Position numbers and translations under genes: made by a program. A stretch of DNA of 64,000 bases, from the NCBI RefSeq assembly GCF_044324785.1, contig NZ_CP172127.1. One strand, 5' to 3'. Origin of the DNA: Escherichia coli (lineage in GTDB: Bacteria > Pseudomonadota > Gammaproteobacteria > Enterobacterales > Enterobacteriaceae). Shown piece after piece: positions 2,239 to 60,798 of this stretch. A model generated the notes under the pieces. That model did not search any database, had not been told where the DNA came from, and saw nothing but the letters and a program-made list of their open reading frames with translations. The stretch's first letter is position 1, and each line of letters starts with the position of its first letter.

Positions 2239-5034
<2,796 letters not shown>

Positions 5035-55055: not shown

Positions 55056-55108
55056 GGGCGGCAGAGCAGTCACGGAGTAAAACTGATACCGCCAAACGTC
55101 ACCAGAAA
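55056..55108 (-). ncRNA. dicF: DicF small regulatory RNA
   Basis: Minus strand reads TTTCTGGTGACGTTTGGCGGTATCAGTTTTACTCCGTGACTGCTCTGCCGCCC followed by TTTTT; recognised DicF with 3' GC hairpin. Confidence 0.88.
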
Positions 55109-58356: not shown

Positions 58357-58779
58357 GTGGCAAAAGTTTTTACACAAGAAGAGCGGGAAAAAATTAAATG
58401 GCAGGTGGTGGAACTCGTGCGCCAGAGCGGCCGTGAGACGTTACGGCAACTGGAAGCTAAAACAGGTGCGACTAGATATCTGATGAGCGTTCTTGCCAGA
58501 GAGCTGGTAGCCAGTGGCGATGTATACAACTCCGGCTACGGGTTATTCCCCTCTGAACAGGCGCGTAAGGACTGGCAAAACGCCCGCAAAAAACTCTCGA
58601 GGGCAAAGGTGAAGAAACCTGCTGTGGTTGATCCGGACCTTATCTGGTCATCACCTGACGGAGAAATACGTCGCTACGACAGTCGCCTAAACATAATCTG
58701 TCGCGAGTGCCGGAAGAGCGAAGTTATGCAGCGCATACTGGCTTTCTATCAGGGTAATTTTCAGGACGTGGCGCAGTGA
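58357..58779 (+). CDS. hypothetical prophage protein
   Basis: 140-aa ORF, basic, Cys pair CRECRK near C-terminus; no family recognised. Confidence 0.5.
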   Translation: MAKVFTQEEREKIKWQVVELVRQSGRETLRQLEAKTGATRYLMSVLARELVASGDVYNSGYGLFPSEQARKDWQNARKKLSRAKVKKPAVVDPDLIWSSPDGEIRRYDSRLNIICRECRKSEVMQRILAFYQGNFQDVAQ

Positions 58780-59222
58780 GTGCACCGGCAACCATTCTTG
58801 ATATGTGCTGTGGCAGCCGCATGTTCTGGTTCGATAAGTCTGACGAACGGGCGATATTTAGCGATATCAGAAAAGAAGGATACACATTACGCAATGGGAG
58901 ACGCTTGATTATCAGCCCTGACATTATCGCAGATTTTCGTGCATTATCATTTGCAGACGCATCTTTTTCGATGGTTGTATTAGACCCTCCGCATCTTGAG
59001 CGTGTTGGTGATAACGCCTGGATGGGAAAGAAATATGGACGGCTGAATAAAGATGCCTGGCGTGATGATTTGCGACAGAGATTTAAAGAAGCTTTTCGGG
59101 TGTTGAGGCCGCACGGCGTTCTGATTTTTTAATGGAATGAAACGCAAATACCGGTAAGCCAGATTCTGGCACTGACAGATAGAAAGCCTGTTATCTGTCA
59201 ACGAACAGGGAAAAAACGATAA
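58776..59222 (+). pseudogene. putative SAM-dependent DNA methyltransferase interrupted by an in-frame TAA
   Basis: Motifs ILDMCCGSR and VVLDPPH; TAA at 59130-59132 after ...VLIF, then 29 more in-frame codons (WNETQIPVSQILALTDRKPVICQRTGKKR) before a second stop. Confidence 0.5.
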
Positions 59223-59394
59223 AACCCACTGGATTATTTTTATGAAAGAGGCATCCAGTGAGTAGATTCGTAAGGTTACAGATACGTATATCTGAATAAT
59301 TAAATTCAGTTCTGTAAATAAAACTTAATCCTTAACCGGATGGATTTCTGCACCCTCAGAACATCAGGAGGCCGCCCGAAAGGGCGGTAGTGAA

Positions 59395-60030
59395 ATGCGA
59401 AAGTTCAAAATTATTATTGAAACGGGAATAGCTGGTGGAGATTTTGAGGATGTATTCGAAGTGGACGATGACGCAACACCTGATGAAATTCATGACGGAG
59501 CATAAGAAATTTTCTTTAACTACTGCAATTACTCATACCACGAAATAAAAGACGATGAGGAAGAACAAAGTGGCTGATTTTTGTTCAGCTAAATATAACA
59601 TCAGTTTTGAAGAGCGGGATGAACTATTAATGGACTATGGTGAGTTACGCGGTGGAAGTGCTGCTGATGTCGAATCCTAGCGTGATGACTATGAAGCGGG
59701 AAAAACTCCGGTCGAAGCATATTGTGAGGAGTGGGGCGATGAATGAGCGAGATTAATTATCAGGAAGGGCATGAAACGGCGGGGCAAGCAAAACCAGTGA
59801 CATGGCGATATCGCTACGTGAAAAAAGGCGTTACGGACTTTCAGGGGAAGTAGTGGTCTGGTGACTGGAAATATGTACCGAAAAAAGAGGATTGTAACGA
59901 CAGGCCGAACTATCAAATTCAGGCCTTATTCACTGCCTCACCAGTCCCGGTTACATCAGAAGAATTGGTTAAAGCTGTGCACTTTTATGAACAACTAAAA
60001 CGCGAAAATCCACCAACATCCGGCAACTAG
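59395..60030 (+). pseudogene. cluster of short ORF fragments in shifting frames, likely decayed prophage gene(s)
   Basis: Successive 15-60 codon ORFs separated by stops and frame changes (MRKFKIIIETG..., MRKNKVADFCSAKYNISF..., MSEINYQEGHETAG..., ...KYVPKKEDCNDRPNYQIQALF...). Confidence 0.4.
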
Positions 60031-60284
60031 ATTAATGGGTTAACTATGTCGGTTAAACGACCAGCCAACTGAAAAAGCGGAAACCTGATTACAGGTTGCC
60101 AGATAAGGCAATGAGCTACCTGGCGCGGAACGGACTGATAAGTATGGGGAATGTTTTACGATGAACCTTTAGACTAAAGAGTTTGTAACGCTATGTAAGT
60201 GATTTTTTCTGGTTTAGATATTTATATGTCCGGCCAAATTGAGGTGTGTTTAAATGTAATTGCACATTGATTGTAGGAGGAATA

Positions 60285-60464
60285 ATGAAAAACGCATTGC
60301 AGTTTTTGTTTGTTGCGTTCTGGTTGTTCGCATCATGTATGCCCATCATCTTCACAGCAAGGTATATGGAAAAAGTTGATGTTTTGATATTAATATTTGG
60401 ATATATAAATGCCCTTTTTTTAGGGGTGTTCATGGCGGTCATGTGCATTGAATACTGGCGGTAA
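60285..60464 (+). CDS. unrecognised 59-aa two-helix membrane protein
   Basis: ATG preceded by consensus AGGAGG at 60275-60280 (4-nt spacer); product MKNALQFLFVAFWLFASCMPIIFTARYMEKVDVLILIFGYINALFLGVFMAVMCIEYWR; AT-rich context. Confidence 0.55.
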   Translation: MKNALQFLFVAFWLFASCMPIIFTARYMEKVDVLILIFGYINALFLGVFMAVMCIEYWR

Positions 60465-60798
60465 ATACAGCGAACTCCATTGGTTTAGTTGGATATTTAC
60501 TGTGCTGGACAAAAACGGTTTGCGGGGAAATCTTAGTTAAGTAGAATGACTGCGGGTGCTTGAGGCTATCTGCCTCGGGCACGAACACCAACGGCAGGTA
60601 GAGAAAAGCCCCAGTTAACATTACGCGTCCTGCAAGACGCTTAACATTAATCTGAGGCCAATTTCATGCCAGACACATGTAGGTTAGCCTCTTACGTGCC
60701 GAAAGGCAAGGAGAAGCAGGCTATTGTTAACACCAAGCTGTAATGTCCCCTTTGAACCATTCTAAAATGTCCCCAGACAATTCTCTGGGGGATTTTTC

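Follow-up and report, generated by a model that had tools for sequence, protein, structure and literature searches.

A run of short open reading frames in the Qin prophage of Escherichia coli most probably represents three separate decayed genes

Results and Discussion

Organisation of the locus

The region between positions 59395 and 60030 of the E. coli window studied here (the window being the whole stretch of 64,000 nucleotides that was analysed) is occupied by successive short open reading frames (ORFs), and the question is what these represent. The ORF list places on the plus strand ORFs at 59395-59505 (36 aa, beginning with MRKFKIIIETG), 59555-59680 (41 aa, beginning with MRKNKVADFCSAKYN), 59743-59853 (36 aa), 59861-59998 (45 aa, in a frame other than that of the ORF before it) and 59965-60030 (21 aa). 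A preliminary description had noted the short ORFs together with an AGGAGG motif and a GC hairpin, all of which are present in the ORF list and the sequence, and had proposed that they are the relics of a duplicated gene of a decayed prophage.

We consider it very probable (about 0.93) that 59395-60164 contains three separate decayed small genes, called here g1, g2 and g3, each of them cut by a stop codon that arose by point mutation and all of them dead, and that they are part of the Qin cryptic prophage. This is ordinary prophage decay with no duplicated gene, in a place where the public annotation (RefSeq) already flags pseudogenes.

The read-through translation contains in-frame stops at 59503-59505 (TAA), 59678-59680 (TAG), 59851-59853 (TAG) and 60028-60030 (TAG). 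Genes g1 and g3 share one frame and g2 is in another, and the genes follow each other tail to head with overlapping junctions. The g1/g2 junction is ATGGCTGA in the intact relatives and GTGGCTGA in the window, and the g2/g3 junction is ATGA. The frames of the short ORFs shift because the three genes overlap, use two frames and are each interrupted by a stop. It had been suggested that the fragments read through each other only after frame changes or an in-frame TAG; the stops were found as described, but the frame changes are gene boundaries, that is, normal stop/start junctions, and rejoining the fragments inside 59395-60030 needs no frame repair. The sole true frameshift is located near 60055-60060, beyond the range first described. 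The ORF at 59861-59998 is out of frame and a product of chance. Compared with their intact homologues the genes are disabled by four in-frame stops, by the loss of one start codon, by a deletion of approximately 30 codons and by a frameshift.

That the sequence is not random, as was initially proposed, is strongly supported, since the stop-repaired frames match three phage protein families with low E values (1.9e-29 for g1 and phrog_1997, 1.2e-13 for g2 and phrog_519, 5.2e-28 for the repaired 95-aa part of g3 and phrog_660). The lesions were mapped by means of a three-way DNA alignment and a survey of 86 fetched loci, 80 of which are IMG/VR viral contigs. In these comparisons a single step separates every primary lesion from what the intact relatives have at the same place.

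The first gene, g1

Gene g1 (59395-59577, plus strand, 60 codons) is a pseudogene in which codon 37 was changed from AAA to TAA (59503-59505). Its read-through translation is MRKFKIIIETGIAGGDFEDVFEVDDDATPDEIHDGA up to this stop and EIFFNYCNYSYHEIKDDEEEQSG from there to the terminal stop. When the stop is repaired, the protein matches the DUF7167 family (PF23768) with 50.7 bits, against a cut-off of 24.4, over profile positions 1-60 of 60, and its match with phrog_1997 covers positions 1-57 of 57. Codon 37 is AAA in all 58 intact copies and the corresponding lysine is invariant among the aligned DUF7167 members, including three from Klebsiella phages; with TAA at this place the uninterrupted frame is absent from the window. 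A second change, E35G, affects another otherwise invariant residue. The repaired protein thus resembles the family in its full-length match to the model, and most of the residues that are invariant between the aligned E. coli and Klebsiella phage members are present in it; it differs in being the product of a pseudogene (K37 to stop, E35G). In the decayed genomes RefSeq describes g1 as "DUF7167 family protein", pseudo, with an internal stop.

A full-text literature search for DUF7167 gave no papers. In Klebsiella (Guernseyvirinae) phages a DUF7167 homologue is placed directly upstream of, and overlapping, a gene that is called exonuclease in VLCpiS11a, and an exonuclease gene is likewise among those listed under several matches in Enterococcus phages. 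Such a neighbourhood hints at a functional link which is absent from the lambdoid context of E. coli; the g1 of the window, unlike these Klebsiella and Enterococcus phage members, does not adjoin an exonuclease gene.

The second gene, g2

Gene g2 (59570-59746, plus strand, 58 codons) overlaps the stop of g1 by 8 nt and carries two lesions: the start codon ATG was replaced by GTG (59570-59572) and codon 37 was changed from TGG to TAG (59678-59680). Its translation from 59555, where the ORF begins, to 59746 is MRKNKVADFCSAKYNISFEERDELLMDYGELRGGSAADVES, a stop, and RDDYEAGKTPVEAYCEEWGDE followed by the terminal stop. The start is ATG in 52 of the 52 intact relatives used, and all six of the intact g2 proteins that were aligned have tryptophan at position 37. 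In the window lineage, W16R and H17D, together with the M1V change of the start, alter residues that are otherwise invariant.

The match of the repaired g2 with phrog_519 is restricted to profile positions 76-137 of 143, which is the C-terminal part, and Pfam and NCBIfam searches of g2 gave nothing above threshold. An intact 58-aa homologue is annotated as a CDS of its own in E. coli strain 961 and in three phages, 640R1, ArgO145 and pPE4. In the genomes with the decayed allele g2 is an unannotated pseudogene, which RefSeq leaves out.

The same TGG to TAG change in codon 37 of g2 was also observed in phage vB_EcoM-606R7 (2777-2953), where it is found in an intact-type background (GCATAG, compared with TCCTAG in the window) and next to an intact g1. 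Either this codon was hit independently, or recombination transferred a short patch.

The third gene, g3

Gene g3 (59743-60164, plus strand) carries several lesions, namely a TAG in codon 37 (59851-59853), where the relatives have CAG, ATG or CCG, an in-frame gap of approximately 30 codons, the TAG at 60028-60030 and the frameshift near 60055-60060. From 59743 it is translated as MSEINYQEGHETAGQAKPVTWRYRYVKKGVTDFQGK, a stop, WSGDWKYVPKKEDCNDRPNYQIQALFTASPVPVTSEELVKAVHFYEQLKRENPPTSGN and a second stop, after which the reading continues. A tblastn search with an intact 171-aa relative placed the gap after ...ENPP (about 60018) and covered 59743-60164 of the window in two frames, so that g3 extends past the end coordinate first given for the locus. 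The C-terminal remnant, TTSQLKKRKPDYRLPDKAMSYLARNGLISMGNVLR, also given as ending in LPDKAMSYLARNGLISMGNVLR, is followed by the stop that ends at 60164. RefSeq marks exactly this interval, 59743-60164, as "hypothetical protein, pseudo, frameshifted; internal stop".

The 171-aa form is the longest and most frequent intact g3 (22 loci), and a 119-aa form was found in 16 loci. The intact 171-aa relative matches phrog_660 with E = 5.9e-73 over positions 34-193 of 193. Searches of Pfam and NCBIfam with g3, including the intact 171-aa form, and with the C-terminal module gave nothing above threshold, and among the profile matches for g2 and g3 there are only PHROGs of unknown function.

In phage vB_EcoS-640R1 an 85-aa "hypothetical protein" (3450-3707) is a frameshifted g3, and similar forms are shared by several IMG/VR loci; damage to g3 is thus frequent, also in loci that have kept g1 and g2 intact. 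The 640R1 gene reads the frame of the ORF at 59861-59998 because of two extra A's in an A-run.

The locus belongs to the Qin prophage

In a record that is 99.9% identical the order of the genes is rspB, int, xis, exonuclease, ydfD, dicB, ydfCBA, repressor/cro, a ydaT-like gene, an O-like gene and DUF977, followed by a methyltransferase pseudogene, g1, g3, an IS remnant, ydfW, flxA, ydfV, relBE and hokD. The position beside rspB and the marker genes dicB/DicF, ydfABC, flxA, ydfV, relBE and hokD are those of Qin. The DicF sRNA is encoded on the minus strand at 55056-55107 (Rfam RF00039, 76.7 bits) and, together with the neighbouring genes, confirms the identity of the prophage. In a gathering scan of the whole window with Rfam only sok and DicF were detected, both outside 59395-60164. 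The proposal that decayed prophage genes are present here was accordingly borne out: the locus is in Qin, and a single intact phage or prophage homologue covers each pair of fragments, that is, homologues do extend over more than one fragment.

Upstream of g1 and in the same decayed block there is a remnant of a SAM-dependent DNA methyltransferase gene (58776-59222, plus strand) with an in-frame TAA at 59130-59132. The repaired product matches phrog_954 with E = 6.8e-75 over positions 51-194 of 229. RefSeq is inconsistent about this gene, which is a pseudogene ("frameshifted; internal stop") in NZ_CP027462, while in ATCC 8739 a truncated 118-aa ORF is annotated as an intact "class I SAM-dependent methyltransferase".

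Intact relatives and distribution of the decayed allele

Lambdoid phages and prophages commonly carry the g1-g2-g3 module in intact form. The three genes are intact, adjacent and separately annotated in vB_EcoS-640R1, ArgO145 and vB_Apl-pPE4, and g1 and g2 are so in E. coli strain 961; the phages that carry the module are vB_EcoS-640R1 (93% DNA identity), ArgO145, vB_Apl-pPE4 and vB_EcoM-606R7. The modules of 640R1, ArgO145 (gp15/gp14), pPE4 (gp18-gp20) and many IMG/VR prophage contigs agree with the window in the order of the genes, in the overlapping junctions and in a leader with a Shine-Dalgarno motif and a hairpin, at a DNA identity of 85-93%. In contrast to the window, where every gene contains a stop, they have open frames (60 aa for g1, 58 aa for g2 and 119-171 aa for g3). 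The third gene, a modular one, differs from phage to phage; in ArgO145 its place is taken by an Ead/Ea22-like protein, and the 640R1 copy is itself frameshifted.

Among the 86 loci g1 is intact in 58 and interrupted by TAA in 28. All of the 28 TAA loci have stops in g2 and g3 as well, which indicates one shared allele. A search of 5,426 complete E. coli genomes gave 465 records with at least 99% identity to 59395-60030 and approximately 1,300 further ones with 80-95% identity; the sampled records of the latter kind typically have three annotated CDSs under the match. The carriers of the decayed allele include IAI1 and ATCC 8739, and the sampled records have pseudogene annotation. In the Qin loci of NZ_CP027462 (C6W75_RS26625, C6W75_RS26050) and ATCC 8739 (CJZ69_RS24235, CJZ69_RS23740), which are 99.2-99.9% identical to the window in DNA, the RefSeq spans match g1 and g3, whereas g2 is without annotation in the decayed RefSeq genomes. 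From its best matches the window differs in one base, a G instead of a T at 59728. The same decayed allele is present in a phage-derived record, PhiR42_1, and the element may therefore still be inducible or packaged in some strains.

A possible course of decay

The three genes form part of a lambdoid early or "nin-like" module, downstream of the replication genes and the methyltransferase, which in functional relatives encodes the 60-aa DUF7167 protein, the 58-aa protein and the variable protein of 119-171 aa. The overlapping stop/start junctions, which are usual among translationally coupled phage genes, fit such a coupling, in which one ribosome-binding site before g1 would feed all three genes. 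In the lineage of the window each gene received a single-base nonsense mutation (AAA to TAA in g1, TGG to TAG in g2 together with the loss of its ATG, CAG to TAG in g3), and in g3 the deletion, the second TAG and the frameshift would have followed. Afterwards the block would have drifted, being inherited vertically with the chromosome. We infer from the lesions and the junctions this order of mutations, the coupling of the module and the lack of expression of functional proteins; 36-aa N-terminal peptides may still be made.

For the region 59395-60164 no new biology is needed, and the result matters little beyond correct annotation. Useful by-products are the recognition of g2 as an unannotated pseudogene, of the apparent second N-terminus as an artefact (see below), and of g3 as a gene of ancestrally 171 aa that extends to 60164. 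The leader of g1 is a candidate, inexpensive to test, for a split ribosome-binding site of the T4 kind among lambdoid phages.

The leader of g1

A Shine-Dalgarno-like AGGAGG (59366-59371, plus strand), with a perfect core, is found 23 nt upstream of the g1 ATG at 59395, and between the two lies the hairpin CCGCCC-GAAA-GGGCGG (59372-59387, plus strand), with a stem of 7 bp if the pair G59371.U59388 is counted. The hairpin alone has a predicted energy of -15.1 kcal/mol and is present in both the MFE and the centroid folds of a 71-nt context.

No terminator is apparent at the hairpin, as there is no T-run after it on either strand and a consensus scan places none there. The only promoter-like site near it (59390-59417) is within chance expectation. 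The boxB of phage lambda is a 5-bp stem with a GNRA-like loop, and a nut/boxB-like role was therefore considered, but it was set aside because the early promoters lie far upstream of the site, which comes after the replication genes and is placed exactly between the Shine-Dalgarno motif and the start.

A reading that complements the decay of the genes and does not exclude it is that the hairpin forms a split translation-initiation region in the intact relatives, where it would drive the coupled g1-g2-g3 module. We regard this as a tentative proposal, somewhat on the doubtful side. The gap of 23 nt is too long for normal initiation, and no alternative start codon is found at normal spacing after AGGAGG; with the 16-nt hairpin folded out, 7 nt would be left. 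Positions G23-G26 of the leader alignment, in the Shine-Dalgarno motif, are invariant across 28 distinct upstream variants, and the hairpin is kept in all 28, with predicted energies of -5 to -15 kcal/mol. Most variants have the loop GAAA and a few have GGCA, both of them GNRA tetraloops. Moreover, one variant (7 loci) has a double change from G-C to A-U, and several have C to U changes that keep G.U pairs. Against the proposal, the covariation of the hairpin is not significant in these 28 variants, since values as high as those observed were obtained in 261 to 314 of 500 shuffles, and the very pair that shows the double change is an A.C mismatch in 7 of the 28 variants. In addition, the distant DUF7167 genes of Klebsiella phages start at the stop codon of the upstream gene without a hairpin leader.

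There is a precedent in phage T4, whose genes 38 and 25 are described as working through such hairpins, which shorten the distance between the Shine-Dalgarno motif and the AUG from 22 to 5 nt and from 27 to 11 nt, respectively, and enhance initiation (review PMC3014915). The g1 leader is similar in having a long gap bridged by a stable hairpin and a predicted effective spacing within the 5-11 nt of the T4 genes. It differs in that T4 belongs to an unrelated group of phages, that the downstream gene in the window is dead and that no significant covariation is found here. Were the proposal correct, a GNRA-capped split ribosome-binding site, documented so far for these two T4 genes, would serve a three-gene cassette of lambdoid phages, and the window would keep the fossil of one before its dead genes.

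Other explanations of the short ORFs

It could be argued that the stops are tolerated or bypassed, either because the 36-41-aa peptides are selected microproteins or because of read-through. In favour of this, hundreds of genomes share the decayed allele in a stable, near-identical form, the ribosome-binding site and the hairpin before g1 are intact, and the primary lesions are all nonsense changes and not indels. We consider this explanation very unlikely. The near-identity of the allele is expected because the host chromosomes share recent common descent, and no general mechanism for reading through TAA or TAG is known in E. coli. Furthermore, g2 is without its ATG, and g3 has a deletion, a second stop and a frameshift. 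The codon changes private to the window lineage comprise 23 non-synonymous changes, 8 synonymous ones and 3 stops, the TAG of g2 being left out of the latter because one other locus has it. The changes are thus mostly non-synonymous and include those at the otherwise invariant residues of g1 and g2 mentioned above; their ratio of roughly 3:1 is the one expected without selection, although the counts are small.

Pairwise comparisons point in the same direction for the first two genes, for which the median dN/dS is 0.28 (g1) and 0.24 (g2) between the window and the intact copies and 0.08 and 0.06 among the intact copies. For g3 it is not raised (0.19 between window and intact, 0.24 among intact), and for the three genes together the value of 0.21 is modestly above the 0.16 obtained among intact copies. 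Given that the overall rise is only modest and that g3 has none, the signal of relaxed selection rests on small lineage-specific counts.

The duplication that had been suggested for the locus, with MRKFK and MRKNK as two paralogous N-termini, is based on the fact that both ORFs open with M-R-K-x-K; besides, g1 and g2 are both small and acidic. The likeness of the two fragments does not go beyond this M-R-K-x-K, which results from purine-rich DNA being read in two frames. The ATG at 59555 lies inside the acidic tail of g1, where the g1 frame is GAT GAG GAA GAA CAA AGT (DEEEQS) and the +2 frame of the same DNA is ATG AGG AAG AAC AAA GTG (MRKNKV). Intact relatives have GAA GAG at this place, so that their +2 frame gives KRKNK and lacks a start codon, the ATG that follows being the start of g2. 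One GAA to GAT substitution made the ATG at 59555, and the second N-terminus is an out-of-frame artefact upstream of the real start of g2. The fragments belong to different genes of different PHROG families (phrog_1997 and phrog_519) and match unrelated genes. No similarity between g1 and g2 was detected by BLASTP (E = 8.9), and hhalign gave their family alignments a probability of 0.2%. A duplicated gene is thus rejected as extremely improbable; a match of the fragments with unrelated genes was also the outcome that the preliminary description had named as refuting it.

That the stops are sequencing or assembly errors of one genome has a negligible probability, as complete genomes and viral contigs of independent origin share these stops, namely the 28 fetched loci and the 465 E. 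coli records of at least 99% identity.

Other features downstream of the three genes

The sok RNA is placed by Rfam at 60554-60725 of the window, and the segment 60554-60790 corresponds to a full-length sok antisense RNA/hok leader (RF01794, 99.8 bits). Homology to the intact hokD locus ends exactly at the hok start codon (about 60724), from where unrelated sequence leads into the remnant of an ISEsa1-like (IS1202/ISNCY family) transposase. The hok toxin ORF is therefore gone, and the regulatory RNA region remains. In the 99.9%-identical record the Qin prophage contains a second, intact hokD further on, at a place that would fall shortly beyond the end of the window.

Between g3 and the sok region, an ORF of 59 aa (60286-60464, plus strand) begins with MKNALQFLFVAFWLF and ends with CIEYWR, and is preceded by AGGAGGAATA. 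It has no RefSeq annotation and no PHROG match, and one phage record instead calls an ORF on the opposite strand "hornerin". All 28 related loci in which the 59-aa ORF is present have it intact, and no variants occur apart from two that differ in a single residue. Judged from its sequence, it seems to contain two hydrophobic segments, and its product may be a small membrane protein.
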